In this document: piece after piece, positions 3,040 to 37,225 of the stretch
Layout of the letters: each line of letters opens with the position of its first letter
Position numbering within the stretch: position 1 is the first letter of the stretch
Assembly: GCA_965645245.1 (NCBI GenBank)
Contig: OZ287076.1
Location: 1,736,001-1,800,000 of the forward strand
DNA from: Massalongia carnosa
Taxonomy: Eukaryota
Direction: 5' to 3'
Length of the DNA stretch: 64,000 nt
Made by a program: the position numbers and the translations under genes
The notes under the pieces: generated by a model
Databases searched by the model: none
What the model saw: only the letters and a program-made list of their open reading frames with translations
Told to the model about the DNA's origin: nothing

Positions 3040-5858
3040 GATGAAAAGCTTGAATTCCTTTCGAGGTCTTTCAGAGGGCAGGTTGGGTACAGCGCCATAT
3101 ATCTGCTTTCCTTACATGAGCTGTCGAGCGACCCCAGAAAGCCTATCGATGCGGGGAGCAGTTGATCGATAAGTCTTCGTAGCTAAACGTTGTGTTTCAA
3201 TCCATCTTGACCAAGTTCGTCCGAGCGAAATAAGTTGATAGCGTCAGTTGCTTGCATTCCCGAACCGCTTGACCCGAAGTAGCCCAAGGGCTCTGACCAT
3301 CACGTACCAAACAACTTAAAATCTCATCGTGCGGCAACTTCTCTCCGAAGCCAGATCTATAGAGTCTAGATGAAGAATAGATTCGAAGCCTCAATTTAAT
3401 ACGAACCCATAAGACACAAACGCAGCGTCCATCCACATGGAGAATCAGAGCCAATCTCTTCCTTCCCAGCCAAAATTCCGACCCAGAAAAACGCCGGCGT
3501 TTATCAGAATCTCCCAAGTTGGGAAGAAGGTAATATGAAAACATTTCGGGCTGTTTCTTCCTCTTTGGTGCCGGGCTGAAACTAGCGAAAACTGCCCTTT
3601 GCCGCTAAATACTCGAGTTTCTCGTCAAGCAATCTAGTTGTGAAAGCAAAAAAAGGAAATGGGACGACATGGGCTAGCGAATCGCTCTACCTGAACCTTT
3701 CGAATCAGAGAGGTTGCTCCTAGACTCTAACTTTGCTTTGGCGTCACTTGGGCATTACCCCGTACTTGTTGTAAACAGTCTAGCCAAGAACCATACTGTC
3801 CAATCGAACCAGACCATTCTGACACCAATAAAGATACTGTCAACATTTAGGATCAACTCTTATAAGTATCTGCTGTAAACGCGTAATTCCACAAAGTAGC
3901 AGTACGTACGTAGTGTCGCTCTATGACCGGCTCGTCATTGGTTTTCTTGTCATGCTTTCTTAAGAACATAAATCGGATCCTGGGAGTTTCGTGGTGCTGT
4001 AAGGCTACTCTTATCTTAAGCGGTAGTTCGATGCACTGCAGAGGCTACGGCTAAGATAAAGGACCTTACTAACGTTTCAAAATAACCAAAGACTTAGGGG
4101 AGGCCTAAAGGATGCAAACAGAGACACTAGAAGGAATTGATTGAGTGCAGATTGAATCGATTGCTTGGTGAGAGGATTTAGATCAATATAAATGATGTCA
4201 ACAAACCAACTAAAGAAGAAAATACAGGAAGTTATACTGATTCCTAAGTTGTGCGAAGGCTCTTCAGGAGTTATGTCTATAAGACTTCGGTGTCACCAAT
4301 GAGCCCAGCCAAACTCAACTTTCCTCAGCCTTCAGTCACTTGTTCTGTTCGGCAAAGGCATCAAGCTCAACAATCCTACCTTGTTTAGATGTTCTTTTCT
4401 GCTTCAAATCATAAACCATCCGCTCTAAGCAACAGAGCCTTCCACCATCGCATAGGTATACGAGATCTATCCAATGGTATCAACGTCTAAAGTCCGAGCC
4501 ATGACAGTCAGTGCCTTGATATGGCTTTATATGATGGGCGGGTATTGTGTGCTCTTTCGAGTTAGCGAACTTTTAGCCTGAGCAAAGTCCCTGCATCCCC
4601 GAGCCGTCCTGCATGAGCGGTTTCAATCATTTTATACCTCTGGGTAGACACTAAGAAACAGATGGAATCTTTGAAAATCTTTATCGAAATATTAGTATCC
4701 TTGCTTCCCAATACGATTCCTTTTCAGATCGAGCATTCTCTTAAGTTTCCTTCAGCATTTTCAATCTTTTCTGTTCAAACCAATGTTTCAACCGCTCCTG
4801 GTGCAACCCGGCCAATTTCCTCCCGAAGAATGTTTCCTCGATAGCTTTGTGAAGTTTCCAGCTGTCGGAAACGGGACGTCTCGCTCGTACTCTAGAAATA
4901 TAACGGAAATTTCTGCACAGCAAAGATACCCAGCGAAAAATATGTACGACCTCTACTTCCTTATAAGCATTTGAAATCGCCTCGTTCAATTCCCTTGTTC
5001 CAGAAGTGCGGTTTTTTGAATCTTGAAGAATGGTCTTTCGCATCTTTAACGTACTGCTTCTTTTGGCTGAAATTGCTTTAGCTGCACCGCCAAAAACTGA
5101 TGTAGCAAAAAACCAGTCCTTTTGCTCCCCATAAACAACATGGCGCACCGCCTGAAGAGATTCCTTGAAACACGTTATGAACAGTAGTTTTTGGTGAGAA
5201 CCGTCCTGGCCATCCTACTAAAAGGGAGTTTGCCGGGGACTGCTTCTGGGTACCCCGACTTCTGCGAGGACTCCATATCTGCGCTGATTGGGGCAGCTGC
5301 AAAACCGGAGGGGTTGGTTCCAATGCGGGAGATGCGCTGTGGGGATTTTCATAACTTAATAATTAATGAAGGGCTAAGAAGACGGAGTGGAGGACTTCGT
5401 CCCAAGGGTCGACTTCGTACATAGTGTTGGAATACTCGCTTAGCCCCATTAGCTCTATCTCAGCCCTGCAGGCTGCCATGACTGCTATAAGAAGTCACCT
5501 CCGTAGTAATTTCAACATTATGCCGTCAACTGTTCATTTAACACATAGCACCACTTACAGCGGATCCTCTAACTCGGGCTCCCCAAAACTGAGACTATGA
5601 GACGTTTTCGACGAGATCGTAGATCATAACATGAGCTGAATGACCTGTAGATCACGTGCAGAATGAGGAACTGTAAGGATTATGCACCTCCTCATGCTTA
5701 TCCCATAATACAGAGTAACTACACCCTTCTAGAGGCTGAAGTGAATGAAAATGAACTTGTGACTTTCAAATCTGCGGATACACTCGTTCAACTTCTGATG
5801 AACGTGTTACCTATGAGAAAGCGACAAATTTAGGAAGGCCGCTACTTATCCCAATCCA

Positions 5859-8800
5859 ATGAGCCTTGCAAAGCTAGTGGGGCAGGACGGCTCACCTAAT
5901 CATTCTGGTTCGCAGCACGATCTTCCTTCCACCAAAGAGCTCCTGAAAGATCCAAGTATTTCGTATCTTCGAGAGCTCACATCCCCAACGCATGCGGAGG
6001 TCGAGTAGGTAGCCCGTTCACAGCGAAATGAGAGTATTGTTACTTCTAATGCGCTTCTAGCCTCGTGGCCGTGCATGGCTTGAATTGGTCCAACGCCGCG
6101 GCCTTTGGGGTCAGAACATGGACGGCGGGGGCTAAGGGCAGAGAAAGACTATGGCTGAAGGACTTCTTACCGCATCGGCTTCCCAACGTGCGGGTTCTGC
6201 TCTACGGCTACAATTCCAATGTAGCCTTCCGCACCAGCAAGGTTGGCGTTGGCGACATTGCAGAGGATTTACTGCAGAAGCTGTGGTCGAAACGGCAGGT
6301 TCGAGCATTCTTGGAGGGATGGGGAAATACAAATATTGATCAAGCTCTCGGTATTAGTCTGCCCCTGAACGGCCTTTGCTGTTTGTCTGTCACAGTCTGG
6401 GAGGACTGGTTGTAAAACGGGTACAAATCCCAGCTACTGCATTTCATGTGTCTATGATTGAGTTCTTGGTTGCTAAGCTCATGTTCAGGCAGTTGTGAAA
6501 GCCAAATATATTCCTCGCTATCAGGCTATCAGCTTGTCCGCCAAAACATTTGCATTTTTCGCCACTCCGCATCAGGGTGGGCACGGTGCAGGCATAGGAC
6601 AAGCTGCTGCTGCTCTCGTCAGGCATGTTGGCATGAACCCCAGAAATGGCTTTATGGAGGCCTTGCGAAAAGACTCCCACGTGGCGCCTGATATACATAA
6701 TGATTTTCTTGAGGGGCAAAGCAATTACCACATCTGCAGTTTTTATGAGTGTCAACGATTGCCGTTTGTGAGTGATTTGGTGAGTCCATCGATCTGTCCT
6801 CCTAGGCTAGCCTGATGGTCTGTAGATTGTCGAGAAATCCTCGGCGGTACTTGGGCTTGGAACTTTGGAGATTCGGGTCCCATGTCCCAACGCAAACCAT
6901 TCATCGATATGTAAATTCGCGAGCGAAAACGACGATTACAGATTTGTCATTGACGAAATAGAAGCGCTTGTGGAGTGGGCAATCGGATCAGCTCCAGCTC
7001 TTCCAGCCAGCCTGGGGCAGTTATCGATCGCTTCGTCGATAACTCACAGGAATGACTACTCAACGTCCGAACCACGCCGCTCCCTGGCACCTCCGGGCTC
7101 TTTCATTCCGCCTTCCATAAGGGAAACTAATCTTTTTGATGAGAAAAGTGTTAGCCCCTTTCAAGAAATCCCAGCAGTAAATCGCCCTCCACGGAAAGGA
7201 CCATTCTTTCTTGTACCTTTCGACCAAAACTTCAATTTTGTAGGTCACTCGGATATTCTCAGTCGTCTTAGTGCCTTCCACAACCTATCAGTCAAGCCTG
7301 GCACGAGATGTGCGCTTTATGGGTTGGGCGGGGTGGGGAAAACCCAAATTGCTTTAGAACACAGTTACCGCTATCAGCGTGATAACCCAGACCATTCGGT
7401 CTTCTGGGTCTATGCAAGCGATGTCCACCATCTGCATGAGTCTTTAGGATTGATTGCATCCCACTGTAGGATTTCGCGAACCGATGATCCGACCGACGTT
7501 ATGCTGGCTCGGGTAAAGCACTGGCTTTCGGAGAGAAAAAATGGGTCCTGGATGATGATTGTGGATAATGCGCACTCGGAGGAGACATTTTCAAAACTCG
7601 TTGGGGGTGATCAAGGAAGTCAAGCCATACATCCCACCAACCCATCGTCGTCCGCCAGGGTCAATTCCTACATACCCGATTGTACCCATGGAAAGGTTAT
7701 ACTTACGACGAACAACCAGTTGACTGCAAGGGCTTTGGCCGGAAATGGGCATATCCTTGAAGTTCTCTCTATGAATCAACAGAATGCGTGTGCATTACTT
7801 CGCAAGTATCTGGCAAATGGAGAATCTGGCGCTACCTATGGCCGAGATATTTACAAAACAGAGCTTGCTGAGGACTTGGCCACTCTTGCTAGACGACTAG
7901 ATAGCCTCCCTTTGGCTCTCGTTCAAGCAGTAGCCTACATAAACATTACCTCGTTGAGTGTGGAAGAGTATTTGGAATTAATCGCGAAGAACGAAGCAAG
8001 CATACCCGGCGTGCTTGAAGCCGAAGGCCCTGGCCATGAGAGAAGCTTTGATCTTTCCAAAGCCTTCATGACAACGTGGAAAGTTGCTTTTGACCAGATC
8101 GAGATCACATGCAGGCTAGCGGCGGAAACGTTGTCACTGGTGGCATTTTATGACGCGGAACGCATACCCAAAGCTCTTTTTAGCCATTTTCAGACAGGCG
8201 GCTCACAATCTTCTGTTCAATCCCTTGAGAAGCTTGTCGCATATTCATTCATTAAAGTCGAACCTAAAGCTGAGACTTTCAGTGTGCATCGACTTGTTCA
8301 ATTAGCTATGCGCAAACGCCTTGATGCTTCCTACACGGAGAAGAAATGGGCTGTTAAGGCGCTCAGGCTGCTGTCCGAGAACTTTCCAAGTGGAGACTAC
8401 GAGTCTTGGGAGATGTGCACTGCGCTTGTCCCGCATGCTTTAAAGATTTTGAGCAATGAGCTATACGGCCCCACCGAGGCTATACCACTTGGCATTCTTC
8501 AGTCCAAACTCAGCTGGTACTATCTGGGGAGGGGTTTTTTTGCTCAGGCGGACATTTGGAGTTGCCGGGCGGTAAACCATATGATTTCTGCGCCTGACGT
8601 AAAGCAGAGCGATGTGTTGGCTATCAAAGCGAAACGGATCATGGTGTTGCAAAAGCTAGGTCATTTCGAAAACGCCGAGGACTTGGCGCAAGAGGTGTGG
8701 AGGGCACGTAAAAGTACTCTAGGGGCTAAGCATGAAGACACACTGCAAAGCTTCACCACTTTATGTTTGGTTTACCAGGTACTAGGTAGATACGCCGAGG

Positions 8801-9777
8801 GAGAGACGGCCATGCGAAAGATAATCAAGAATCTTGAGAGAAGCTGTGACTTGGATGATGCTCCGGTTTTAGCTGCGAAGCAGCGACTAGCCACAATTCT
8901 CTGGAATCTCGGCTGTTACGCTGAGGCCGAGGATTTTGCACGAGCAGCCATCAAAGGCTACGAGAAGAACTCGGGCGCCCGTCATCCCGACACGTTGAAA
9001 AGTTACTGGGTACTTGCGCAAATCTACCTTGGCCAGGGTAAGGATACAGAAGCCGAGGAAATGGACATGGAAACCTGGACAGTGCAAAAACAGGTTCTTG
9101 GAGTGGACAGCCATGAAACTTTGAAGTCACAGTATGCACTCTCCAACGACCTTCAAGCTCAGTCCAAGTTCGCCGCAGCCGAGGCTCACAAGCGAGAAAT
9201 CTATCACAAGTCTATCTGCTTGGTTGGCCCGACGCATTTTTACACTCTCACTGTTGCAGCGGGCCTTGCGTCGTGTATAACGGCGTCCGCCATCACCAGT
9301 GGCAACTTAGAACCAAACCGTCTCGCAGAAGCCGAAGCTCTGTACCAGCTTTCACTTAATGGTCGCGAGAAATTTTTGCCCCTGGATCACCTGGAAATCT
9401 TGGCTGTCCGTACAGATCTCGCCGCCCTTCGCCGCTTGCGTGGACAAGTCCCCCTTCCCGAACTCGAAGCATCGGAACGGGATACCCTGGCCAAGCTCAA
9501 GAAGCTTGTCGGCAAGACCCACCCCTTCACAGTTCGCAGCCAGGACAACCTTGCGCGTATCCTCTGGCTGCAGCGCCACGATAGCGCCAAGCGAAAGGAG
9601 GCACTGAAGAAGGCGAAGGCGGTGTTCGAGATTACGGAACAGAGGCTGGGTTGGGCCAAGCGGGGGACGTGGTCAGCGGCCGAACTGGTGGTGGAGATGT
9701 CGCCGCCGGAAGGGCGTGAAGGAGAGGAGTTGGCGCGGAAGATTGCCTTTTGGAGGAACACGATTGGGTTTGCCTGA
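5859..9777 (+). CDS. Fungal NLR: SesB-like alpha/beta-hydrolase + NB-ARC + TPR repeats
   Basis: ATG at 5859. GT-AG introns at 6005-6060, 6299-6357, 6421-6489 and 6780-6826 join in frame to give DLVAVHGL, WLKDFLP, RVLLYGYNS, FVCHSLGGLVVK (nucleophile Ser), FFATPHQG and ANHSSICKF. Walker A GLGGVGKT, Walker B WMMIVDNA, LPLALVQA, VHRLVQL, then TPR-type repeats (LGAKHEDTL, GARHPDTL, LGVDSHETL). Confidence 0.92.
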
Positions 9778-10918
9778 GGGGACGGGGTTGGATACCGTGC
9801 ACTGATGACTCGTGAAGGGGGAGGGATAGTAAACGATTTACGGCCGACCGGGGGTTTTTGATATGGATTTGTGACATCTACCAGCAATTTATGATACATA
9901 CTAACATGCCCTCGTTGTTTCCAAATCCCTACTCCTCTTCAAACCAGCTCCATCCATTCATCTTTTCTCTACGCGTCACCACAAGTCGATCCCATGTCTT
10001 TCCGATACGTATACCTAGGTACCGTACCTACTTACTTACCCTGCCAAGAACGAAGGTTCTAGGTTCTTCAGCTTTTCCAAGGGAACCTGGGGAAGGGGAG
10101 AGAGTGGAGGTGGGGCGAGTGCGCTCTCTTCTTGAAAAGGGTTCAGGTGTGGAATATTCGGGGAGTTCCCGGGGGAAAGAAAGGATAGATATGAAGATGA
10201 TGGGTCTGATGGGGTTTTGGCTTAAGGGGTGGAGGGAGATTGAGTGAGGAAGAAGAAGGAGAAGAAGAAGAAGAGATATCGGGAATTGGGAGTAAGGGGT
10301 AGAGAGTCAAAGCAGTCCGGAGAATGAAGAATCGGATGATACCTACTTACATAGCTAGCTAGCTGGAAAATGCTGCATTTGGTTTTCGGTTTCGGTAAAG
10401 GAGGGGGTTTTGGTTTGTTTGGTGCTTGGCCCTTTCCTTATTTACTTATCTGGTTGATTGGCTGGTTGGGGTGCCTTGATCTTACCCACCTACTACCTGT
10501 CGTCTCTAGGTATTGCTGGCTGGTTGGCAAGCTCGCAGAACAGGAAAAAATCTGCAATGGCAAAACTCCGTCTTTACTAACTAGGTACTATCTTCTTCTC
10601 CGGGTATGTATGCGTCTAAAGTGTAGGCGGCGCTCGATATGTACCTAGGATGCAGAAAAAAAGGGGGTTGATGAACAAAAACCGCTTGGATCTAGCGGAT
10701 GGGGGTATCTTTGACGAAGCCTACCCAAACTCCTTTTGTCTCTCCTGCAAAATATTCCCATCGTAACCTTCCCTATGGGGCAAATTTAAAAAAAAAAAAA
10801 AAAACAATAAGAATAGAACCTAAAGTAAAAAACCTCCTCGCCCAGTTCATCCACAACCTAGCGGTAACCCTGTCGGCCATCACCGATACCCTAGCCAATG
10901 CACTCCTCCTATACAAAC

Positions 10919-13414
10919 CTAGATACTCACCGCCATCTCATCGGCTGGATCATCACTCGCTGCCGCATCCCCATCTTCCCTCTCCATCATGCGTCTCCCC
11001 TTGGGAGACGGGGAACGTTTCCATTTCTTGTTTGGAGACAGTTCCTGGAGTGCTTGCTCATCCTTAGATACATCAACAACAGTCGATGAGACGGGAGACT
11101 CTTGTAGCGCCAGTTCGTCCTTGGAGGGATCGGCCATTGGCTCGTCGATGAAAACCGTTATTTGTTGATCCTTAACTTCCGTAACACTTGGCTTATTGAC
11201 GACGATATCCGGCGGTAACCCCTGCAGCGCTCGTTCTTGCGTGACTATATCCGTTGCGGGTTCATTGGAGAAATACCTCGCTCGCTCAAAGTCGATAAGC
11301 ATTACCCGTTCTTTTTCCTCGTTCCACAGCATATTTGGCCATCTAACGTCCCCATGGTCCACTCCCAATCCTTTTACTTCTCCAACTGTTCGCCAAACTT
11401 CCGTCTGGCTCGTATCGTCGTCTATCATCTTCCCTCCATAAGATAGCAAGAGCATATGCTTTATTTTGACGTCTAGGTCAAGGTAGTAGGAGCGACGGAG
11501 ATTAATGTTCCCTAGGTAGACTGGAATCGCTGCTCCTTGGAGGGTTTCCAGCTGCTGGTACATCTTACCCTCGTGTAGTAACGTAGGTATGAAAGCCCGT
11601 ACCGTTCCTTTGCCAACGAAGACGTAGCCGTGCGAAGTGAGCGCAATCCAGAAAAGAGCTCCTCGGGCTCCTTGCACATCAAGCGAGTGGCAATCAACGT
11701 CCAGAGTCTCTTTGAGCTGTGCTTGAATGAGTTCCATGAACGTTGTCAGTCCGATTGCGTGATGTGTGCCATCTCTAGGGTGTAGCGACGCATTGGGACA
11801 CGTTTCATCCAGGCGCAATCCTCGTACCATACCTAATAGGCAGTCTTGGGTGCAGTATTGTCGTTGTCTTCCCTGGCGGCTACTCGTACTGTTTTGGCCG
11901 TCACTTGGCTCGCCTCTGACCTTGCCGCGAGCTTGCGCTAGATTGCCCTTGCGTGATCTACGACTACGTGGGCTGGCGGGAGCGTCAGGATCCTCAGGTT
12001 CGTCGTCGTCAAGAAAGGGATCTTTGTCGTCAGAAGCACAGCTTGAGCTCATCCTGGCTCTTGCCTTTTCCTTTTCAATCGTCTTTGATCTGGTATGGTA
12101 GGGTGATTGCTTAGGGTTAGGATTCTTACGGCCTTTGTAGGACGAGGTTGGCGCTTGCTTTCTTTCAGTTGCAGGAATTCGTGCCAGCATGGTCTCCAAA
12201 TCAAGGTTCCACTTTTTCAATCCCTTCTTAGCATTATGACGCCAAGAATGAGTTCTTTGCTTCGATTGAAAAGACATCAGAGCCAGGCTCAATACCTGGC
12301 CTATGGCCGACTCCGGATATCTTTCATCGATTGCCTCGTCAATATCCTCACCAGGCATGGTCAAATGATAATACGCCGTGCTTGGGTCATCTTCTCTAAC
12401 GTGAAGGAAGACAAAAGCCTCACCGGTCGTAATGTAGCTATATTCAAGGCCGCTTCGAATCATATAATCAAACGTCTGCGTAACCACGGCGGCCACTAGT
12501 TGCTCCGCGGTATATTGCAGCCTCGCCTCAGTGACGGCCGGGTCTTCGCCTTCTTCCTTTTGGGGTGGCATTGTAGGCGTTGAAAGCAAGTAATCAAAAT
12601 CCAACGGTCGAAATCCCCTTGTCAGATTGTCGGCGGAGAGTCTGAACGGCGGTTTGTATTCGACGAGGAAGGCCAACTGGCGACTAGAATCCTGGTTCTT
12701 GAAAACACAGAATTGATCAGCGTTTGGTTTTTTGGGTCTTACTGAGGAATCGGATTCCGAGCCGGATGATGAGACTGATGTCGTAAGTTGAGAGCCTTGG
12801 CGAGGAGTTTGAAGTGCCATCTGTTGCACTTCTTCTGCAAGATCGCTGAGCGAGTTGATGTGATTCTCGAAAGTAATTCCTTTTTCCAACTTTAATTCTT
12901 TTCGAGCTTGCACGTTCTCGCAAAGATGACGGATGACTTGGGTGACCTGATCCTCTACCGCCAGCCGCTCGTAAAACTGGAGATCCCCTTCGCTCGTTAA
13001 TCTTCGTCCGCAATGGTCCTGCCCAATCCTTTCATAGTACGAGATGTTGCCAAATTTCCGCGGAGCTGGCCGGTCTGATGGGTGGAACCAGCAATATGCC
13101 TGATCAAAGACTTGCTGTCGTACTTCGGGGAAGCTCTCCCAAGGACAGATTCTTCTAGGATAGTACCGATTCTTAGGCTTCGTGAAGCCTTTAGTCGTCC
13201 ACGCTAGATTTCTTTCGATCCTGAGAGCCTTGTGGAGGTGTTCATGGCAAGTCTTCAAGAACTCCTCAAACGTTGTCTCCTGTGCCCGTCGGTTTGATTC
13301 CTCTACCTGCCGGTTTGCCTGCCTTAGAAGTCGCTTAGCTTCCTCTGCTTCTCGTCTTGATTGGTTCACAAGTTCCTGAAGCTCTTGAAGAGTCAATTCA
13401 GATTCAGCAGACAT
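10919..13414 (-). CDS. Spok: Spok-family protein (coiled coil + PD-(D/E)xK nuclease + Cys cluster + kinase-like domain), 831 aa
   Basis: Intronless ORF. N-terminal coiled coil followed by TTFEEFLKTCHEHLHKAL...RYYPRRICPWESF. Nuclease motif ADQFCV...LVEYKPP, then QTFDYMIRSGLEYSYITTGEAFVFL. Cys cluster YCTQDCLLG...CPN. Kinase HGDVRWPNMLW...LIDFE. Domain order matches Podospora SPOK proteins. Confidence 0.85.
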   Translation of the reverse strand: MSAESELTLQELQELVNQSRREAEEAKRLLRQANRQVEESNRRAQETTFEEFLKTCHEHLHKALRIERNLAWTTKGFTKPKNRYYPRRICPWESFPEVRQQVFDQAYCWFHPSDRPAPRKFGNISYYERIGQDHCGRRLTSEGDLQFYERLAVEDQVTQVIRHLCENVQARKELKLEKGITFENHINSLSDLAEEVQQMALQTPRQGSQLTTSVSSSGSESDSSVRPKKPNADQFCVFKNQDSSRQLAFLVEYKPPFRLSADNLTRGFRPLDFDYLLSTPTMPPQKEEGEDPAVTEARLQYTAEQLVAAVVTQTFDYMIRSGLEYSYITTGEAFVFLHVREDDPSTAYYHLTMPGEDIDEAIDERYPESAIGQVLSLALMSFQSKQRTHSWRHNAKKGLKKWNLDLETMLARIPATERKQAPTSSYKGRKNPNPKQSPYHTRSKTIEKEKARARMSSSCASDDKDPFLDDDEPEDPDAPASPRSRRSRKGNLAQARGKVRGEPSDGQNSTSSRQGRQRQYCTQDCLLGMVRGLRLDETCPNASLHPRDGTHHAIGLTTFMELIQAQLKETLDVDCHSLDVQGARGALFWIALTSHGYVFVGKGTVRAFIPTLLHEGKMYQQLETLQGAAIPVYLGNINLRRSYYLDLDVKIKHMLLLSYGGKMIDDDTSQTEVWRTVGEVKGLGVDHGDVRWPNMLWNEEKERVMLIDFERARYFSNEPATDIVTQERALQGLPPDIVVNKPSVTEVKDQQITVFIDEPMADPSKDELALQESPVSSTVVDVSKDEQALQELSPNKKWKRSPSPKGRRMMEREDGDAAASDDPADEMAVSI

Positions 13415-15511
13415 ATTTATGAAGTGGCAAATTTAAGTAGCGGTTTGGGAATGACCACATCGCTTAGGATGTTTGGGAGGTGTTTTTCTGGTAAGGTTGT
13501 TTAACAATCACCAGCAGCAAAATCAACAGCACTAGGCAGTATTAGGTGTAGACTTGTTTGGAGGGCGTTGTCCGGGGCATTGTTCTAACTTAGGGCTGAA
13601 GTACGAGTACCCCGCCTTGCCTGTTGTTCCTTTGAGATCTCAGTCAATCATACTTCACTAAAGATTTTCAAAACTCCTGAAAAAGTGGAAAACGCCCTGA
13701 AATTTAATCGTTTAATATGTTGAGGTTATCAAAAAAGCATTCGACGAGGGTGTCGTGACTGTGAAACAAGGAATTTCTGCGACTTTTTCTTGTCAACCGC
13801 GTGCCATGCCGCTCCTTGTTGCCAAGACTTGATTCTACCGGAGGGAGAAGCCGGTCCGAGTTGCAGCCTTGCCGTTCATATCGAGCCATTCCAATAGCCA
13901 ATATTGAGATTATGTCCGTCATGACTCGGTATAGAGGATTCGGGTTTATATATATAGTTTATTAGAGTAGCACAGTAGGTATGAAGCGTATTCGGTATAT
14001 ATTCCGTACACGCATCTGTAGCTCTCCATCCCTATGTACTCATCCTCCCACGAACGATGCTGATGCAACCCCACTCGGAACCAAAAGCGTCAACAGTTCG
14101 CCTCGTCATCGCTGGAGATAAGGCTGAAATGATGATCATCAACGAGCATGTCAGATGATCAACGTCCCGCATCGGTGCTATTCGGTGCTTCCGTCCGGAT
14201 GCGGCAGCCATGAGATTCCGATTTAACTTTCTGATCTTTTGATTCTGCAGGGCACATCCACTCTTGCAGTTGCAGGCGCGTTGGCCACAAGCTCGCATGC
14301 CTTGATCACTGATCAGGTCATGCAATCATACTATGTATCAGCGGATCGTATTTACCAGCGGTTAATGAATATTTCGAAAGAGACGATCACGGCTAAATGC
14401 AGAGGGAATTCAAATATAGTCCCTCACATGATTGCCACAAAAGGCTTAGACTCAGGTACCAAAACACGCGGGCGGTGAATAGTGCCAGCGATCCGGATCC
14501 CGATCCTCCCGACCCCAGCACCCCAGATTCCAACATTAACGTTGAGCCTAAGGCTTTCCCGCATGTGATAATGTTGGCACCAATCAATCAAACCATTTCA
14601 ATTGGAATTCAGGACCTGACTAACGTTTCATCCTCGTCTATTCACCAATCAACGACCCATCGCATTGCAGTGCAGATTAGGGTTAGGGATCCCATTCCGA
14701 ACGAACGGGAGATTACTCTGTTCCTTCGTAGTTACAATTTGTATGACGGAGTGCCTCTGCTGATATCCGTCCATCCATCCATCCATCCATCCCTCCCTCC
14801 ACCCATTCGGTCGGTTCGCTTCGGTTCGGAGTGAACATGCAGAAGAATTTCAACCGAACAGCAGGTGAGTACAAAGTAGGCACTCTGTAGGCTGCAGAGC
14901 CTGGCAGTGAAGTGATTTAACCTTATGCTGCTGCCCAGCGCGTGATGTGACGCCTTGCAAGCACCTCCCACACGCACCCGTTGGATGAGCCTGAATTAAT
15001 CCATTGCACGTTCATGGCAGGACATGCTTTGCCCTAACCCTTAGTCACCCTTAACCCCAAATTGTTTCATATACCTCCCATGCCTCCCCATCATTTCTTT
15101 TCCAGTCTTCTCTGCCCTGCACCCACTTTCCAAATTATTTCTTGCTCTTGTTCTTAACCTCTGTTGTTTCTGGAAAACATCCACTGTCACTATCCTCCAT
15201 ACTTGGCTGCCGTTCATCGGGTCTATCAATTCGTGTTCATTGGAAATAGTTCAAACACATTCACTCTCGTGTCCACCTGCGCCCGAGCGCTATTTTCTCC
15301 TCATTGCGGGTAAAACGTTCCTTGTCAAGCGAGTCGTAATTTGTCGCGAGGACAAAAAGCATTAGCTCAACCAAGCGATCTCCTTCACAAACCGGCACTT
15401 CTTCGCAGCAGACTCATCACAAATCCAAATCGCAGGATCTTGTTGGCCAAACAGTGTCATCTACCCCCTCACTCAAGCCAAAACCCCCAATCCTTTCAAC
15501 TGTTCGTCCAA

Positions 15512-16033
15512 ATGCACCCTCTCATCTTTCTTCCGTTCCTCTCTCCCCTCCTCGCCGTGGCCCTCCCCGAAATCTCCGACAAGGATACGACGACACAAAC
15601 CTCGACCTCAACCCGCTACCTCACCCGGACCCTTGTCCGAGGCGTTACCCTCACCTCTTCCATCCCCGCTCCGTCCTTCCTCCCGCTCGTCCCCGGTGAC
15701 GCCTACTCCTCGCTGCCCTCCTACCCGCCCATCCAAGCGCCCACCGCCACCGACGACGCCGGCAGCGTCATTTCCACCATTAACCTTGCGCCTCCGTCGT
15801 CGTCCGCTACCGCCGTGGCCATCCTGGTGCAAACTCCCAGCGCGACCGCCAAGTTTCCTTCCGGTACCGACACGCCGGCTGTGAATTCCACTGGCACCCT
15901 AGGCACGACCGTCTCACCAGCGCCGACAGTTGCCACGTTTCTGGGTGCAGCCCCAGGGAGGAACGGGCTCGGTTTAGGGACGGTGATGGTTATCGTAGGG
16001 GCTATCATGGGGGTTGCGGGCGGGTGGTTGTAA
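15512..16033 (+). CDS. Small secreted Ser/Thr/Pro-rich protein, probably GPI-anchored (173 aa)
   Basis: First ATG in the ORF gives signal peptide MHPLIFLPFLSPLLAVALP. S/T/P/A-rich body. C-terminus ATFLGAAPGRNG followed by a hydrophobic tail resembles a GPI signal. High GC3 codon usage. Confidence 0.8.
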   Translation: MHPLIFLPFLSPLLAVALPEISDKDTTTQTSTSTRYLTRTLVRGVTLTSSIPAPSFLPLVPGDAYSSLPSYPPIQAPTATDDAGSVISTINLAPPSSSATAVAILVQTPSATAKFPSGTDTPAVNSTGTLGTTVSPAPTVATFLGAAPGRNGLGLGTVMVIVGAIMGVAGGWL

Positions 16034-17140
16034 AGGGATTGAGGGTTACGAAATGAAACATACAGGAAACTTGCAAGGCCCGTTGTGTTTTTTTGGACAT
16101 CGACTCAACTCAATGTTTGCTCAAGTTGAATTACCGAACTCTGGATTTGATGCGTGGTTCATGCCCTTATTTGTACATAATCTATGCCGGCAAATGAAGA
16201 AACATTCGTTTTTATTTGTGGTTGCGGTTTCGCTATAGGTTTTTCGTATTCTGGTTCATATAGTATCGATGAGTTGATGAGTCGCTGAATCGCTGAATCA
16301 CGCTTTGAGCTAGAGCTTTAAAGCTTTAAAGCATTGAAACTTGAGACATGAAGACAAGTCTTTCGGAACCGACAGACTAGAAAAGCAGAACCAAGGACGA
16401 AAAAGAAGAAGAAGAAGAGCGAAATGTTAATACGAACATGTATGTACCTACTATCTCTCCATCTATTCCCCTCCATCCCTAATTCCCTCTCCATCTCTCC
16501 CTCTATCTTTCCTATCTATGCATCTACCTATCCGCCCGCCCAGTCACTCACCCACCCATCTCCACCAAAATCAACAAAAACCTACATAGTTTTGAATATC
16601 CGTAAAATTTCATGAAATCGTTGTTGATGCTGTTTTGAAAACATGAGATTACATAACGAAGACGTTTTTGAAAAGTTTAATGCGGTCAATGCCTCGTCGA
16701 GTGCAAGCAGTCCTGAATGCAAATGGAGGTTATACTAAATATTAGTTACATGTAAATAAATAATCGCATCATTCTATCAAAACGTTGATTTTTTGGTAAC
16801 AGCAACAATAGATAATTTATACTGCTATGAAATTCGTTTAAATTCGCCTATCCGGACACTAACGATCCTACCTTATACCATAATAACTAGTACTTCGTAG
16901 AGTATGCAGTTTCCAAGATATCCGAAAAAAAAAGCCGAGAAAGTCAACGAAACCCAGTAAATAGTTATGTAACAGCAATACCATGACCATCTCTTCAGAA
17001 TCCAGTCCAGAGACGGAACACGTTTGGGATAATGGCGCAGTCTGCATGGTTTTTATCCCTTTAAAAGGTTTTCCCTGTAAGAATAAGTAGATAGCCCGCA
17101 TGGGCCGGCCTTCGGCCGGTGTCAGATCGGTACAAGAATC

Positions 17141-17141
<1 letters not shown>

Positions 17142-17174
<33 letters not shown>
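17142..17174 (+). repeat. (ATC)11 microsatellite
   Basis: Perfect trinucleotide run read directly from the sequence. Confidence 0.95.
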
Positions 17175-17176
<2 letters not shown>

Positions 17177-19644
17177 GACCATCGCTTCAAAGCCCCACTT
17201 TCACCCAGTTACTGGTAAAAACCGCCGTATTAACGCCTCCAAAGGCCAGCCAGTCGGTCGGTCAGTCTTACAAGCCGCATTCAGAAAGCCCCGCCCACCC
17301 CTCCCCCTTTCTCGCAGCATGTTCCGTTTACCTATAGAGCACAGGCAAGGTCCTTGTCGAATTTTTCGGAGTTGGCAATTTATGGCTATGTATCTCCTTG
17401 ACGATGAGGGAGGGAAGGAGGGGGATCCGAGACTGGACCGGAGATTGGGAAATAGGAATAGGAGGAGGGTGGATTCGCTGGAGATAATTCTGAGGTTATC
17501 AACACACGGATTTTCTGTATCATAATTATTCACATAGACTTCAATTTATTCCTCTTTATAACAAATCGATTATCAGGACTCAAAAAGAACGTAGAAGTCA
17601 AGTTCTAATTTACAAAGTGAACGCGCGCTTTTGTCTGAATTGACCGATTGATAAAGACATCATGATACTTTCCTATCTGGGCACAGCATTTTCCTCCGAA
17701 CAACAGCCTCTACCGCAAGGATCAGCTACATCTGAGCTGCTCGTGACGCACGTCTAGCTAGGTAAATGGTAGCGTTAATATCAAATTCATCGTCGTCATA
17801 AAAAACACCAAACGATACCTGTAAAAATCCCTTTCACTATTTAGAGTTACGTAGCATCATCTCTTCATGATATGTACAACCAGGGCAGAAGTTGAGATAG
17901 TCTTCAATCGCTTAACCACTTTTCTCGTCCGCGGTATGAGCTACGATGGCCGTCTCGAACACTGTCAACGCACCGTTTCTGTCCATTTCGCTCGCTCTTG
18001 ACCCTTCAGCCTAAAGACTGACGGAACCTTAAGTTCCCACGTTATCTATCAATGTATCGCTAGAGCTCCTCAACCCCTTACGGTCTGCTCATGGCACACC
18101 ATTCTGCATCCGCGACAAGCTCTGCAACAAAACCGCTTTGAGATCATCGACAAATTGACCAATACCATCATCCCCCAAGTAGCGAAGAGAGCTAAACGAC
18201 CCGCAATCCAGCGACAGTTAGGGAGTTTGGACGAGCGGCTGTTCATCGCACTTATGTCACAGGTGCCATATGCCGTTTCGACGCCATTCGGCCCTCGATT
18301 GCCCGAGGAGTAGAGTACATCAACCGAGGAACCACTTTATGGAGTGCGAAGACTGAGGAAGGGAGAATACACTGTACGAGTCAGTAGAGCAGAGAACTCG
18401 AGCTGCCAGATTGGTTGGTGGCGACACGGAGCCAAGGAGGAGAATTTCGAGCCTGCAAGCGAGAGCGGACAATCGGGGATAGATTGCTCGTTGGGTCTAT
18501 CGGAAGAGTCGTCACCACTTGTGTTAGATGCCGCAGCGATAGCGTCAATTGATTTCTCAGTGGTGTGAGAACGGTTTCTGAATGGGATATTATGCAACAG
18601 AGTAGAGAGATGGAACCAAAATGAGCTCATAGTTTCACATCCAACATGCCTCGAAGCGTGTGAATCTCAGTTTCCTCGGCCCAAGTAAAAGGGATCGCAA
18701 GTAAAAAGTGCTTGAATCGACGCCTAGCCACAAACTATAATCCCGCCTCAGATTGACTTCTTAAATCGTTCGTCAACCGGTAAGCAAGCCTTCAAATTAG
18801 CGATTACATATTTACAATTAAATTTTCATTTTCAATCGATTCGTGACACGTATGGAACTAACGCGTGATAATCATGCAATTATTGCGCGCATGTTGCTTT
18901 TCATTGATGTTCATCGTAATGTAGCAGGCACGCATAAGGGAGCTCGGCGCACAGGTGTGCGAAATCGGCTCGGGTCCGTTGAGTCAACGGGTGCTCGCGG
19001 GGCTATGTCATATTAAGAGTCACAATGAGATTTGAAAGGGCGAAAGACGAGGAAGAAATAAAAAATGAGCAAAAAGATGTACCTGTCTGTCTGTTTTGCC
19101 TAGGTATGTTGGACAAGAAATCGAAGCTATTATTCCTTTCTCCTTTGAAGATCATCAAATACATCCAGAGGCGATGAAACATATGAACAAATGTAGGTAC
19201 TCTATAGAAGGAAGCCGTCAATACAATACTACTGCCTGTAAAAGCAGCAAGAGTACCGGTACTTGGATGGGATGAAACGGTGGGAAATGTGTCGTTTTTG
19301 TTTGTTGAGGCAATTGGTAAAGGGATACTTCGTTGTATTTACCCGTGAAGCACAGGGTCTCTCTGCCCACAGTAGTTGTTGTAGCTTCTCTTCATTCATT
19401 CATGCATTATAGAACTCGAAAGCGCGAGAAATGAGAATGGAGAAAAAGATGGCTGAGCGATGAAGAGAATCACTTACCCCGTCAATATTCAAAAAATGAC
19501 TTGCAGACTTGACTTTTCTCTCCTCTTTTGCGATGGATCAAGACTCTCCAACCAATGTTAATATCCTTATTGTATTCAGACAGGTTTTCACAAACGATTG
19601 TTTATGTGTGTGTTAGTCACACACATAACCTTCGGATCTGGGCA

Positions 19645-20805
19645 ATGAATCATCTTCTGCTTCCCAGTAGCCCTGCCCCATCAACTGTAGGAAAAGTCCC
19701 TTGTGTAGCCGTGGAAGAATATATTGGCAGGTCATTCCTTACATATCGAGCGCGGAAAGACAAGATCTGGCCGTCATCGAGCGAAGATGAAGGAGCTGAT
19801 GACTCTTAACCAGGATATAAGGTGCAGACCGCTAGCCCATCAGATTAAAATGGAACATCGATCATTGAGACTATTCAAGCCCTCTACGCGAATGGTTTTG
19901 CAACAAAATGAGTTTTTTGGAGCAAAGCAAAAAATGGACGAGGTTCTCATGGATGTTGGCACCGCTCTGGCTCAGCTTGATACAATTTTATTTCATCATT
20001 CAACCAGCGTGGATGCTGATGAAGCATTGTGTATCGGAATACTATTAGATCTCCCCGTCATGGAGATCTTGAATGGTCCGGAGACGGCAGCTTCAAGGAT
20101 TGGGAGAGTCTAGAAACTGATTGCAGCGCAATACGGAGGTCTTCTCAGAACATGCTCTGTATCGAGAAACCTAAAATGGAAGAGCCGGGCCTGGATGGGC
20201 ACCGAAGAGTTTGCTTACTCGCACTCACCGAATGGGTTTGTTAGACAGATTAATGAAATGGGAGAGAGAAAGCTCGGGGTTCCGGTAGGCTCCAGGCTAC
20301 TTGTGAACTGTTCAGGACTTAAATTGGCGCTCAGGTGCCCAGATGACGAACTAAGAAATGATGATGGAATCTAGTATAAGCTTTTCGCGACCTTCAAGCC
20401 TCTGAGTGGTCTTGTGCTGCCGATATAGGAAGTAGACTCATATGGAAGACGATCATGGGAAGGCTTAGCAGCCCAAGATAACCGAGCACACAAATAAAAT
20501 ATTTTTTTATTGAATCTAAAAGTCATCTTACCGTCGCAGAGCTCCCTTCACGACGCCACAGAACGATTGGCTCGGAAGTTAAAGTCGACACCCACTCACA
20601 GATCGATTGTTCAGTCTTCTGCCTGACAAAACAAGCATGTAGTGCAAAGAGGCAATCGTGGCATTGAAAGATCCTGCTTTAGTTCATCCTTATCTCGGAT
20701 TCGATTTTAGGATATTGGGGAGTTTACTGGTGATTTGTGGCTGATTGTTCAATCATGACTACGTTAGGACGTGACTACCGGCTAGTCAGCAATGGTGCGT
20801 GGACT
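19645..20805 (+). pseudogene. Internally deleted, degraded HET-domain-family gene
   Basis: N-terminus MNHLLLPSSP...VPCVAVEEYIGRSFLTY. Post-HET block HSTSVDADEALCIGILLDL...RV*KL with a TGG>TAG stop at 20111. Frameshifted PGL/WAPKSLL and terminal SQQWCVD. These match the N- and C-terminal motifs of a common fungal HET-protein family as I recall them; the central HET domain is absent. Confidence 0.6.
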
Positions 20806-21200
20806 CGCATGTTTTTCGGCATTTGTACTGTGAAGAATATAACTAGTAGGGATTTAAAGGATCCTAACAAAAGACCATATGTGGCCCTTTACCCGTAGAA
20901 TTCGTCAACAGCCATACAGCATTCGAGGTAAGTTATACCATATTGCTTATGACTCTTGGTTGCGTAATCTCGCAGATGGGCATACAATGATCGATTTGTT
21001 AGATAAGCCAGAAATAATTAAGGAATTCACAACGCTCAGATACCCGTCTAGGCATCATAGAAAATTGCTTGCTCTTTATCCTATATCCTTGGACCTCGAC
21101 AAGCAATTTAACGGATTGGTAATACTAGCCGTAGCTATAGAGTTCCTTAGTACGATAAGCAATTGGGTACTTATTGATCCTAGAAAAGCTTTGGAGACTT

Positions 21201-23023: not shown

Positions 23024-23581
23024 GAAAAGTTTAATTAGTGACAGAACTTAGCAGATCTCCTGAGGGAAATGATAGCTGATCAATTCTCGTCGAAAGTTTA
23101 CTCTACCCCAGGTTTGTGTGGATAAAACTCGGAGTGCTCAGCTCCGACGAGGCTGGCGGGGGCTATGTTCAATGCTGTCTCATCACATACCTTGTAGGGG
23201 AGAGATGAGGCGAAAACTCGCAAGAAAGCTAGGCTTCCATTGCAAAAAGAGAACCAAATGCCCACTTTCCCACCACCGCCAGCCTAAGCCACTTTTTCTT
23301 GATAGGCGCGTTTCTGCTTCTTGTCGCTCTTGGTTTATTCTTCGCTCTTCTTAAAAGTTAAAATAAACCACGCGACGATGAAAGATATAGAAAAGAACGA
23401 CATCGAAATGGGAAAGACAATAACTCGAAAATGCGTTCATACAAAAATGGCTTTGACAAAGAATGATTTTAAAATGGCATATTAGCCTAGCATATGCCAA
23501 GCCTGCAGCATAAAAGCTGTCAGCCTTGTGTTACTCTACCCATCAGCCTTATTGGACTCCAGGATTTGGTCATATATCTTG

Positions 23582-35971: not shown

Positions 35972-37225
35972 AGCAAGTGCCGGAGGTTGGCAACCCAGAA
36001 ACGGAGGAAGATGGGAGACAAGATTTTGTCTTCTCTATTGACATTTTCTATTGTAGTTACTTGGAAATCCAATTAACTCGTTAAGCAGTTAATTTGCAGA
36101 GAGCCAGGCATACTTCTGGTTGGATGAGTCCTGAAACAACGCCCTCCAAGGATTCATAACTAATATTGTCGGCATGCAAATGCTTGCACAAGACAATCAC
36201 CGAATTGCTACACACCTATTTTGTTACCGGTTCAATAGATCATACTTCAATTTCTATCATCTGGAATAGCTCCATCGAGCACTCTCGACCTACTAATAGA
36301 ATTTTGTGCCACAACTTGATATCTAGCCAGCGGATCCATAAATGCGTGGCATGAAAGTCAATTCATCATCTCGATTCCCTGGAAGCATCGCCTTGTTAGC
36401 TTTGTCATTGCTCATGTAAGATGCCTAAATTCAAGGTCACTGAAGGTCAGACAGAGCTTGGTCCCTACCAGCTTAAGCTTGGAGATCAGACATCAATCTT
36501 GTTGTAGGAATCCTCGTGGGCTCTTAAGTGACAGAAGCTGAACCAAAAATGAGTCACTTTGCCTGGCTTTTGACCTACATATATCTCAATCATGGATTGA
36601 TTATGGGTTGCTGCATGTTGATGCTGGATGATGGGTTTGGTTAATTAGGCGGCACGGCACGCTAGCCGAGGGTTGATACTTGGCATTCACGTGGTAATGC
36701 GTAAATATATCACATGACTGAGGCACCCGTGCGTTCACGAGTAAAGCTCTCAGCCACACATTTTACTCCCATCACCATCGAATTGATGATAAGCTGGATT
36801 GCCGTACTGCTTATGCATTTTTGATATGAATCATTGCCATCAGCATGGATCGATCCCTGGGAAGCCCAAGGCCCAGCGACTCAACGCCAAGCTCAGAGAA
36901 GAGTGTTAGGGAATGCTTGAAGAACATGAACAAGCCATATGCAGCTAAACTTTACAGGCAGAGCGTGGCGTACTGGTAAAGGATGCAGAGAACAGGTAAC
37001 AGGGTAGAATACCTGATCCCATTGCATAAATACCAGCCTCCCGAACCTCCAAAGGATGTGTGATACTTGCAACACCATGTGATAATATTTCCCTTGGCAA
37101 GAGGATTCCAGAACACAAAAGCGTCTACGAGTCAGAATCTTTGCATTCATATACTCCGAGGACCCTTCCGGAAAAATACCAGGGCACTCATTTTTAACGC
37201 CGTTGTTCCCAAGTCCAGCGCTGAC

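Follow-up and report, generated by a model that had tools for sequence, protein, structure and literature searches.

A well-preserved SPOK-family gene in the lecanoromycete Massalongia carnosa

Among the single-gene meiotic drivers of fungi, Spok genes are understood best and, to our knowledge, nearly all of their homologues beyond Podospora and Fusarium are untested. The Podospora Spok genes, which share the architecture of the gene described here, are reported to be spore killers (PMC6660238; PMC12941216). In SPOK3, the substitution K240A abolishes killing and D667A gives a toxic protein, and a Spok2 allele altered close to the catalytic lysine has lost or impaired killing and keeps resistance (PMC6660238). 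SPOK1 D680A has been found to kill both E. coli and yeast cells by acting on DNA (PMC9972908). Among six Fusarium homologues with conserved catalytic residues, two were toxic in yeast and four were without effect, with assay insensitivity a likely cause of the negatives according to the authors, and the same report, which gives IPR052396 as the InterPro entry for the family, describes Spoks as expressed and toxic in vegetative growth (PMC12693581). Furthermore, Spok genes have now been tied to the upkeep of accessory chromosomes, as a Spok limits the loss of a dispensable chromosome, with a fitness gain that needs hyphal fusion (bioRxiv 10.64898/2026.10.04.756499).

The gene analysed here lies in a stretch of 64,000 nucleotides, referred to as the window, from Massalongia carnosa (assembly GCA_965645245.1, contig OZ287076.1, positions 1,736,001 to 1,800,000). 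It is a single uninterrupted frame encoding a protein, P0001, with exactly the coordinates and length given in the initial annotation (Table 1). The start is the first ATG downstream of an in-frame stop, and the stop-to-stop frame runs over 10919..13432 (837 codons), a stop-free run with a chance of 3.5e-18 if equal codon use is assumed. No RIP signal was found in the gene or the window, GC3 (0.509) lies within the range of the neighbouring housekeeping frames (0.465-0.549), and 5 studies (7 run rows, with no RNA run among those listed) contain near-identical copies; the gene is therefore not degraded, and is single-exon and intact. No tandem repeats were found within it.

Table 1. Features of the SPOK-family gene and its protein, in window positions.
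Feature	Position	Strand	Remarks
SPOK-family gene	10919..13414	-	831 aa + stop; homologues carry PF27653 SPOK2_N
N-terminal helical heptad region, residues ~5-46, putative coiled coil	13277..13402	-	pattern read by eye
Domain 1, residues 47-180; conserved C56-H57, T74, G76, P86, W92	12875..13276	-	corresponds to SPOK3 domain 1 (PMC6660238)
Putative PD-(D/E)XK nuclease ('killing') domain, residues 226-405	12200..12739	-	motif level only
Catalytic motif D233-x18-E252-Y-K254, then unusual F257-R258	12653..12718	-	pattern search, alignment
Q313-x3-Y317 motif	12464..12478	-	pattern search
Low-complexity linker, residues 406-515	11870..12199	-	poorly conserved in alignments
Cys/His cluster C521-x3-C525-x13-C539-x5-H545-x6-H552	11759..11854	-	pattern search
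Minimal kinase ('resistance') domain, residues 556-720, predicted	11255..11749	-	profile + motifs
C-terminal tail, residues 721-831	10922..11254	-	8-sequence alignment

Judged by profile and motif order, the gene is a member of the SPOK family, as had been proposed from the sequence at the outset. A profile named after Podospora SPOK2 (PF27653.1, SPOK2_N in Pfam 38.1) is carried by 93 of the 93 homologues found, including the allele P0002, which has the same length as P0001 and is 99% identical to it; the call is the precomputed Pfam 38.1 annotation of P0002 and the homologues, not of P0001 itself. The same family is present on 95-99% of members in the three nearest Atlas clusters. Moreover, the motifs follow the order of SPOK3 with an offset of 14-22 residues: the nuclease motif spans 22 residues in both proteins (219-240 in SPOK3, 233-254 in P0001), the QxxxY motif stands at 294-298 and 313-317, the catalytic aspartate of the kinase is residue 667 and 689, respectively, and in both the Cys/His cluster precedes the kinase. 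Like Podospora SPOK1-4, P0001 is a single protein of similar length with putative N-terminal helical repeats followed by domain 1, and its architecture is complete and collinear with that described for SPOK3 (PMC6660238). In the putative coiled coil, with its heptad pattern over residues ~7-46, L9, V16, A23, L30, V37 and A44 share one heptad position and L12, S19, A26, A33 and S40 the other, as read by eye.

Coiled-coil length and the 3' end are variable among Podospora Spoks and among the relatives of P0001 alike. In these relatives the N-terminal helical region differs in length through repeats rich in E, R and A. The C-terminal tail of P0001 holds, in an alignment of 8 sequences, a lineage-specific insert of ~55 aa, three copies of an 'ALQ' motif and a conserved basic S-P-N-K-K. 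P0001 differs from the Podospora SPOKs in the 55-aa insert before the basic motif, in the replacement of HK by FR after the catalytic lysine, and in having no Starship context within the window. The last spacer of the Cys/His cluster is also x6, compared to the x7 printed for SPOK (PMC6660238).

The initial annotation had described a D...EYK nuclease motif, a CxxxC...C cluster and a kinase of the form HGD...N...DFE, all apparently intact. The three elements were recovered as D233/E252/K254, as the Cys/His cluster upstream of the kinase and, for the kinase, both as motifs and as a profile match to Cdc7. Every catalytic and cluster residue is present, and the description needs amending in one respect, the change of HK to FR. 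Compared with 213 family proteins, P0001 keeps 51 of the 54 columns that are conserved at ≥90%. Retention of all these residues is the norm for the SPOK family and not special to P0001, the complete catalytic and cluster set being found in 196/213 proteins of a very large family (2503 representatives at E<=0.001).

The nuclease residues are conserved across the family (D in 205/213 proteins, E in 206/213, K in 209/213 and Q in 211/213), and both the D233...K254 motif and Q313-T-F-D-Y317 were recovered by pattern search. The stretch E-Y-K-P-P of P0001 is followed by F257-R258, three and four residues past the catalytic lysine K254, where H (200/213) and K (204/213) are usual. A separate search recovered the motif from 190 proteins, of which 178 had HK, with FR limited to the P0001/P0002 alleles; an aromatic Y at 257 and an R at 258 also occur in other family members.

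For SPOK3, an HHpred match to the N-terminal PD-(D/E)XK nuclease of HsdR has been reported (PMC6660238). HsdR, of the type I restriction enzymes, has D...E-x-K and QxxxY in common with P0001; the comparisons below gave no significant similarity, and the distance from K254 to Q313 is ~59 residues in P0001 compared to about a dozen in the aligned HsdR sequences. A search of the PDB with the whole protein was blank for a nuclease fold, and a PDB profile search with the putative nuclease domain gave a best E of 0.94. HSDR_N_2 was the sole Pfam family matched by more than one nuclease-domain sequence in a per-member scan (2/27, best E 0.14). An Atlas search with this domain alone, in which SPOK2_N was skipped, returned nothing at or above 0.9. 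Alignment by hhalign gave a probability of 0.8% against EcoKI HsdR and 0.7% against 11 HsdR N-domains from E. coli K-12 and 10 plasmids, the sole paired stretch being the QxxxY helix. Likewise, when the domain alignment was used to scan genomes of bacteria and archaea, there were 8 pattern matches, with no relative among them. As such, the assignment of residues 226-405 as a putative nuclease is supported at the level of motifs, from which we infer its fold and activity.

Each position of the Cys/His cluster is kept in 211-212 of the 213 proteins. In the kinase, H687-G-D689...N694 and D708-F-E710 were found by pattern search, and, at the ATP site, K602 is kept in 212/213 family proteins and E615 in 213/213. 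The SPOK family profile matches Cdc7 (best E 3.8e-8), with the two aligned at HRD...N...DFG, and it also matches other kinases over the catalytic loop and DFG, so that the predicted kinase domain is confirmed at the level of the profile. Like other minimal or atypical kinases, it is short and has the Lys, Glu, H-x-D...N and D-F-x elements, ending ~12 residues past D-F-E. Weak Pfam matches to Kdo, APH, RIO1 and OspG_kinase, of the Kdo/WaaP, APH, RIO and OspG types, are spread across members, but they place P0001 in none of these families, being below cut-off for it; its Kdo score is 19.6 bits against a curated cut-off of 21.3; among 64 members, APH was matched by 41, Kdo by 36 and Pkinase by 29.

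The gene lies on a 2.26-Mb contig with ordinary genes around it and core genes ~20 kb off. A gene for an NB-ARC/TPR protein is 1.1 kb away and one for a HeLo-kinase 8 kb away; BLASTP shows no relationship between the kinase of the latter and the Spok kinase. It had been noted initially that Spok genes often ride on large mobile elements, but here there is no captain, transposase, repeat or RIP within the window, which is the extent of this search and has one edge 10.9 kb from the gene. DUF3435, DUF3723 and DDE_3 were absent from the 48 frames scanned out of 62 window frames of at least 120 aa, and tblastn of the window with Starship-linked genes from relatives gave no match. Nor did the window hold direct or inverted repeats of note, a second Spok-like stretch, or tRNA or Rfam matches. 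A composite element around the NLR-Spok pair was considered and rejected, two flanking high-depth repeats being unrelated to each other. Fusarium Spoks are described as near relatives of the Podospora clades, with many located on accessory chromosomes or Starships, in contrast to the lecanoromycete clade and large contig of P0001. FuSpok1, FuSpok2 and their homologues are nevertheless comparable in that they lie outside Podospora and have conserved catalytic residues, and some are reported on core chromosomes; with them, the kinase-Asp mutant in yeast has served as a working assay for toxin-antidote genes among such homologues.

The gene was present in every sample whose reads covered the region. 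With the 20 kb around the gene divided into 30 bins, run X6 covered 28, and the listed pieces were without differences; run X7 covered 3 of the 30 bins. Runs X12 and X13 share the organism label of X6 and gave cover neither of the gene nor of its flanks; because the flanks too were uncovered in the runs without the gene, these runs have no bearing on its absence or expression. Another assembly has the gene split into three called pieces (residues 1-70, 168-482 and 560-831), owing either to a break in the allele or to indels in the assembly.

In a tree built without SPOK1-4, the clade that contains P0001 has 33 rows and a support of 98, and every one of its 7 named rows is a lichen-forming lecanoromycete. 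The Sordariomycete and Eurotiomycete members found are 27-35% identical to P0001. Claviceps supplied the only Sordariomycete members found (27% identical), and a search from a Claviceps homologue returned 6 proteins, all from Claviceps. The next-best Spok match is 55% identical and that of the housekeeping Kelch neighbour 71-73%. Patchy distribution was rejected as a reading of this excess divergence, because the Kelch neighbour also lacks close matches, its next-best value implying that close relatives are simply unsampled. Lichen metagenome assemblies each hold several SPOK-family paralogues, for example 6 loci in one assembly, and many of these lie next to housekeeping genes, with synteny shared between assemblies. 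Related copies have also been recently duplicated to non-homologous loci, as in L002 and L044 of one assembly, where coding dS is 0.22 and the flanks are 0-3% alignable. One relocated related copy lies next to an NLR and to a gene resembling a DUF3435 captain. When 9 neighbour proteins of P0001 were compared with 76 loci of its relatives, only distant NLR-like matches were found, in 3 loci.

Among the lichen relatives, whole-gene dN/dS is 0.31-0.42 at dS 0.2-0.3. In two pairs, it is 0.09 and 0.20 for the kinase domain, 0.27 and 0.52 for the nuclease domain, and 0.24-1.06 for linkers and tail; the linker at residues 406-515 has values of 0.47-0.83 and the C-terminal tail ~1.

We read the locus as an intact, single-exon SPOK-family nuclease-kinase gene of a lecanoromycete and, with about even confidence, take it most likely to work like the characterised members. 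The helical N-terminus would then pair the protein, the central D...E-x-K domain would attack DNA as the toxin, and the Cys/His cluster and minimal kinase would neutralise this toxin, as an antidote, in cells making the full protein. Nuclei or spores losing the gene would be penalised. Such a toxin-antidote capacity is plausible. That the kinase would be self-protecting and that P0001 would act selfishly, be it at meiosis or in vegetative or fused hyphae, are extrapolations from other members. Of the 213 proteins, 12 have a changed nuclease triad beside an intact kinase and 3 show the reverse; this excess of nuclease losses, in numbers that are small, fits toxin-antidote logic. Several observations speak against this reading: retained residues do not ensure activity, as in the 4/6 Fusarium homologues without effect (PMC12693581); H257F and K258R stand close to the catalytic lysine, where the Spok2 changes impair killing (PMC6660238); the searches for a nuclease fold were blank; identity to the Sordariomycete and Eurotiomycete members is 27-35%; the locus is a large contig near core genes, with no mobile-element gene in the window; and another assembly has the gene in three pieces.

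Rather unlikely, but first among the alternatives, is a resident, non-killing member, like most of this very large family, whose pair of enzymes evolves under purifying selection of an ordinary, if relaxed, kind and serves some host function, or none known so far. The huge and mostly intact family (2503 representatives; 196/213 complete), the several paralogues per lichen assembly, many of them syntenic beside housekeeping genes, the whole-gene dN/dS of 0.31-0.42 and the chromosomal, non-mobile context in the window are all in keeping with this, as are the 4/6 Fusarium homologues without effect in yeast, but the authors of that work regard assay insensitivity as a likely cause (PMC12693581). 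Moreover, no family member has a known host function, and the strict pairing of nuclease and kinase, with 12 against 3 losses, is what a toxin-antidote system predicts.

It is less probable that the gene is a vegetative addiction or competition module, poisoning nuclei, compartments or fusion partners without the locus, as proposed for Fusarium spok genes. A Spok does curb dispensable-chromosome loss with a fusion-dependent gain (bioRxiv 10.64898/2026.10.04.756499), and Spoks are expressed and toxic in vegetative cells (PMC12693581). The NB-ARC/TPR and HeLo-kinase neighbours are of the non-self-recognition or cell-death type, which alone is weak evidence, and the gene stands on a large contig beside core genes rather than on an accessory element.

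The label of candidate meiotic driver given initially derives solely from family membership. A currently active driver, killing spores without the gene in heterozygous asci, is distinctly improbable: Podospora Spoks of identical architecture do so (PMC6660238; PMC12941216), P0001 keeps all catalytic residues and related lichen copies have reached new loci (L002, L044), but drive needs heterozygosity and the gene is in every sample with the region covered, there is no mobile context within the window, and just 2/6 Fusarium homologues are even toxic (PMC12693581). Least probable is a resistance-only allele with an intact kinase and a nuclease weakened by H257F and K258R, for which the FR unique to P0001/P0002 among 190 motif-bearing proteins, the H and K otherwise kept (200/213 and 204/213) and the Spok2 changes near the catalytic lysine that cost killing and spared resistance (PMC6660238) could be cited, but the replacements are conservative in kind, Y at 257 and R at 258 are found elsewhere in the family, and the D/E/K triad and Q motif are intact.

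To summarize, P0001 as it stands is an ordinary, well-preserved member of a SPOK family that is common in fungi, and the comparison shows a distinct SPOK clade in lichen-forming fungi, for the most part intact and with several copies per genome. We know of no crosses being possible in Lecanoromycetes and of no examination of transmission bias there, and literature searches found no paper on Spok genes in lichens. A bolder proposal, which we regard as a long shot, is that lichen fungi carry their own expanding Spok clade in which P0001 functions as a single-gene killer, either in asci or once hyphae have fused. If this were true, no selfish toxin-antidote element would have been shown in Lecanoromycetes before it, and its recently relocated relatives would mark an active family. 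Killing of yeast or E. coli by a lichen copy would extend toxin-antidote elements to a class in which genetics is nearly impossible, and would open a way to study conflict inside thalli that live long and may be chimeric.

As judged from sequence, the large protein searches are decisive for placing P0001, the product of the gene under study, in the Spok family. Scanned against Pfam, P0001 gave a single match, to a Kdo kinase, at 19.6 bits and below the cut-off of 21.3, and a PDB sequence search with it returned nothing useful. Among 8000 scored candidates, 93 proteins matched P0001 at E ≤ 0.001, including P0002, an 831-aa allele of 99% identity, and all 93 carry a precomputed PF27653.1 assignment, which bears out the family identity proposed in the initial annotation. 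According to Atlas, PF27653 is SPOK2_N (Pfam 38.1), and in the three nearest Atlas clusters, all from Ascomycota, 98, 95 and 99% of members carry it. Furthermore, the Spok family is very large, with 2503 cluster representatives related to P0001 at E ≤ 0.001, 1656 at E ≤ 1e-10 and 730 at E ≤ 1e-30 in an exhaustive representative search. Compared with the Podospora spore killer SPOK3, as described in the available text of PMC6660238, the motifs of P0001 are collinear: the nuclease motif lies at 219-240 in SPOK3 and 233-254 in P0001, QxxxY at 294-298 and 313-317, and the catalytic Asp at 667 and 689. Both proteins have a Cys/His cluster immediately upstream of the kinase, although its final spacer is x7 as printed for SPOK3 and x6 in P0001.

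The uninterrupted 831-aa reading frame of the initial annotation is present and its coordinates are exact. From stop to stop the frame spans 837 codons, a length free of stops with p = 3.5e-18 if equal codon use is assumed. The window holds one Spok-like copy and shows no RIP signal, no internal tandem repeat was detected within the gene, and its GC3 (0.509) is within the range of the housekeeping frames of the window (0.465-0.549). A heptad pattern, judged by eye, occupies N-terminal residues 7-46. At the other end, the tail (residues 721-831; window 10922-11254, minus strand) contains an insert of about 55 aa that is absent from seven aligned relatives. A K-D-E-x-A-L-Q-E motif occurs three times in this tail, ahead of a conserved basic S-P-N-K-K stretch, and no DNA-level tandem repeat was detected over these copies.

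Pattern searches of the translated protein located every motif that had been named, that is, the nuclease motif D233-x18-E252-Y-K254, the Cys/His cluster C521-x3-C525-x13-C539-x5-H545-x6-H552 and the kinase motifs H687-G-D689...N694 and D708-F-E710, together with a QxxxY motif, Q313-TFD-Y317. The kinase call is upheld by the family profile, which matches solved kinases at both the catalytic loop and DFG, most strongly Cdc7 (E 3.8e-8), where the H-G-D, N and D-F of the family stand opposite HRD, N and DFG. Matches to APH, Kdo and Pkinase were given by 41, 36 and 29 of 64 family members, respectively. Since the domain stops about 12 residues after D-F-E, the Spok kinase of P0001 is regarded as a minimal kinase, which agrees with the view, in the available text of PMC6660238, that the Spok kinase resembles eukaryotic-like kinases. 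For the nuclease, the motif stood and fold support was not obtained from PDB, Pfam, Atlas or hhalign searches. An alignment of 27 nuclease-domain sequences had no PDB match (best E 0.94), Pfam scans of its individual members gave only HSDR_N_2 (2/27, best E 0.14), and an Atlas part search with the domain returned nothing at 0.9 or above. Similarly, hhalign gave 0.8% against EcoKI HsdR and 0.7% against an 11-sequence HsdR alignment, pairing only the QxxxY helix, and no bacterial relatives were found when bacterial and archaeal genomes were scanned with the domain alignment. The putative nuclease assignment thus rests on the conserved motif, family membership and the published HHpred and K240A results.

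Intactness was assessed by aligning 213 family proteins of at least 650 aa to the profile of a 64-protein family alignment; the starting pool was 242 proteins, which include the 64, and 29 fell below that length. Of the 54 columns with at least 90% conservation, P0001 agrees with the majority in 51, departing at H257F, K258R and T369S. It retains D, E and K of the nuclease triad, as well as the kinase residues K602, D689, N694 and D708. Both sets are kept in 196/213 proteins; in 12 the triad is altered and the kinase intact, in 3 the kinase is altered and the triad intact, and in 2 both are altered. The catalytic and cluster residues are all present, as initially annotated, but such intactness is the family norm and does not distinguish P0001, and H257F and K258R lie beside the catalytic lysine, with F257-R258 directly following E-Y-K-P-P. 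In a motif search, HK occupied this position in 178 of the 190 proteins in which the motif was found, and FR in P0001 and P0002 only. Both changes are conservative in kind (F/Y, R/K). In the available text of PMC6660238, Spok2 allele changes close to the catalytic lysine impaired killing and not resistance, and the FR deviation therefore deserves testing.

Copies of the gene are also found in sequencing data. Seven run rows from five studies contain it, with word shares of 1.00 (three rows), 0.97, 0.88, 0.56 and 0.05, and the best-matching run could derive from the sample that yielded the window itself. P0002 differs from P0001 at five residues (R35Q, K450N, Q621R, Q726E and S830G), none of them catalytic. 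In another assembly, one 8.3-kb contig has the gene called in three pieces (P0363, P0364 and P0365; residues 1-70, 168-482 and 560-831), identical to P0001 save one residue at a piece end, which represents either a broken or frameshifted allele or assembly indel errors. Contigs of run X6, one of those with the gene, cover 28 of the 30 bins of window 4000-23999 with no differences in the listed pieces. Their depth is very high at 5425-5543 and 16621-16997 (bin means 222 and 99, about 1700 at single places). These two stretches, presumably dispersed repeats of the X6 sample, flank the pair formed by the Spok-family gene and its NLR-like neighbour, are unrelated to each other and are absent from 76 related loci.

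The window contains 62 stop-to-stop frames of at least 120 aa. Pfam scans covered 48 of them (21 of the 26 frames of at least 180 aa, 25 of the 36 shorter ones and 2 further frames of at least 180 aa), frames overlapping larger ones being omitted, and also took in the NLR frame's upstream portion.

Features of the Spok-family locus, in window positions
Feature	Position	Strand	Basis and remarks
NLR-like gene: NB-ARC (weak, E 0.0032), DUF7779, TPR_10/TPR_12	6826-9777	plus	Pfam
Spok-family gene, 831 aa	10919..13414	minus	first ATG downstream of in-frame stop
HeLo (E 8e-25) then Kdo-like kinase region (E 3.7e-5), 504 aa	21533-23047	minus	Pfam
Protein-kinase and ankyrin-repeat frames	24263-27668	plus	Pfam
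DUF659 frame	28680-29381	plus	Pfam
979-aa frame, sole match a faint RVT_1 (reverse transcriptase), E 0.0075	37064-40003	plus	Pfam
Core genes: Hsp70-like, RRP40, coatomer gamma, class II tRNA synthetase, Kelch, Raptor	~33 kb onward		

The NLR-like gene is tail-to-tail with the Spok-family gene, 1.1 kb apart. The HeLo-kinase gene has a predicted cell-death-type architecture, and its kinase part shows no similarity to the Spok kinase by BLASTP. The kinase and ankyrin frames are possibly a single gene with introns, and DUF659 is linked to hAT-type transposases. The left 30 kb, with these genes, looks like a variable compartment adjoining core genes. The earlier suggestion of carriage by a large mobile element is not supported within the window, where neither a DUF3435 captain nor DUF3723 or a DDE transposase was detected by Pfam or by tblastn with relatives' genes, and where there are no repeats and no tRNA or Rfam match; an element might run past the left edge. 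None of nine neighbouring proteins of the window has an orthologue adjoining any relative.

In lichen metagenome assemblies, the best 80 of 262 relatives detected by a pattern scan gave 76 loci, which form 36 groups at 90% nucleotide identity or more, with up to six loci in a single assembly. An open frame of at least 690 aa is present in 53 of the 76, and several of the remaining frames are truncated by contig ends. For the whole gene, dN/dS is 0.31-0.42 at dS 0.2-0.3 and 0.19-1.42 at dS below 0.08; by domain, in two pairs of which the second is incomplete, it is 0.09 and 0.20 for the kinase, 0.27 and 0.52 for the nuclease and 0.24-1.06 for linkers and tail. Some copies are syntenic between assemblies and adjoin housekeeping genes, and others, about 90% identical, are found at unrelated loci, in some cases within one assembly (flanks of L002 and L044 are 0-3% alignable). 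Flank scans of 23 loci (95 of 127 frames of at least 220 aa, the 32 omitted being Spok-like or overlapping frames) and tblastn over all 76 placed DUF3435-like genes at 4 loci (two gene groups), DUF3723-like genes at 6, DDE_3-like genes at 7 and NLR-like genes at 4. Together, the syntenic copies, the copies at unrelated loci and the flank genes indicate that the lichen clade holds both settled and recently moved copies; the mobility of relatives says nothing directly about the window's own copy.

Individual loci add detail. In the comparison of L004:1301-10266 (with L003 and L044) against L002/L015, one assembly has two Spok homologues at unrelated loci, with about 90% nucleotide identity and dS 0.22; one copy adjoins UNC-50, FHA and NmrA, and the other is followed by NB-ARC/TPR and DUF3435 (Starship-captain-like) frames. 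This pair seems to reflect a recent duplication into a new location, which may be mobile. In the L010/L012/L017 group, downstream flanks from different assemblies align over 94% and upstream flanks over 4-24%, the structural difference beginning right at the 5' side of the Spok homologue. At 4/76 loci (L001, L004 and L060/L061), as in the window, a Spok homologue has an NLR-like gene nearby, no more than about 5 kb away.

The nearest named matches of P0001 among the 8000 candidates are the lichen-forming Circinaria, Lobaria, Xylographa, Varicellaria, Icmadophila, Ptychographa, Letrouitia and Lepraria; three of these eight genera are confirmed as Lecanoromycetes, and the other five presumably belong there also. 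Remoter matches come from Penicillium, Aspergillus and Histoplasma (28-35% identity) and Claviceps (27%). A FastTree phylogeny of 87 rows (96 proteins, P0001-P0094, P0239 and P0240, minus nine rows below 650 aa) places P0001 in a clade of 33 rows with support 98, all seven named rows being Lecanoromycetes. The closest non-allelic relatives are 55% identical. This gap is not taken as a sign of patchy distribution, because the neighbouring housekeeping Kelch protein equally has no close relatives (own copy 100% on a 2.26-Mb contig, next best 71-73%, named Lecanoromycetes 55-63%).

In characterised members, according to the available text of PMC6660238, killing needs the nuclease lysine and self-protection the kinase aspartate, and the accessible part of PMC9972908 describes kinase-dead SPOK1 killing E. 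coli and yeast via DNA. In yeast, certain Fusarium homologues behave as toxin-antidote proteins, and spok genes can stabilise dispensable chromosomes by means of killing that depends on hyphal fusion (PMC12693581 and bioRxiv 10.64898/2026.10.04.756499, available text). By analogy, P0001 could be toxin-antidote competent, for which we see roughly even chances. It might instead be a non-killing resident, a reading that we consider rather unlikely and that is favoured by toxicity in yeast of only two of six Fusarium homologues with conserved residues, as given in the available part of PMC12693581. That P0001 currently drives at meiosis, as the initial annotation had proposed, appears quite improbable.

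Spok homologues are widespread across Ascomycota and mainly divergent and untested (PMC6660238, available text), and Pfam and InterPro each have an entry for the family. Among the best full-text literature matches listed, none dealt with Spok genes of lichen fungi or Lecanoromycetes. P0001 belongs to a known family, to which the lichen-specific clade and the FR pair next to the catalytic lysine bring modest added interest.
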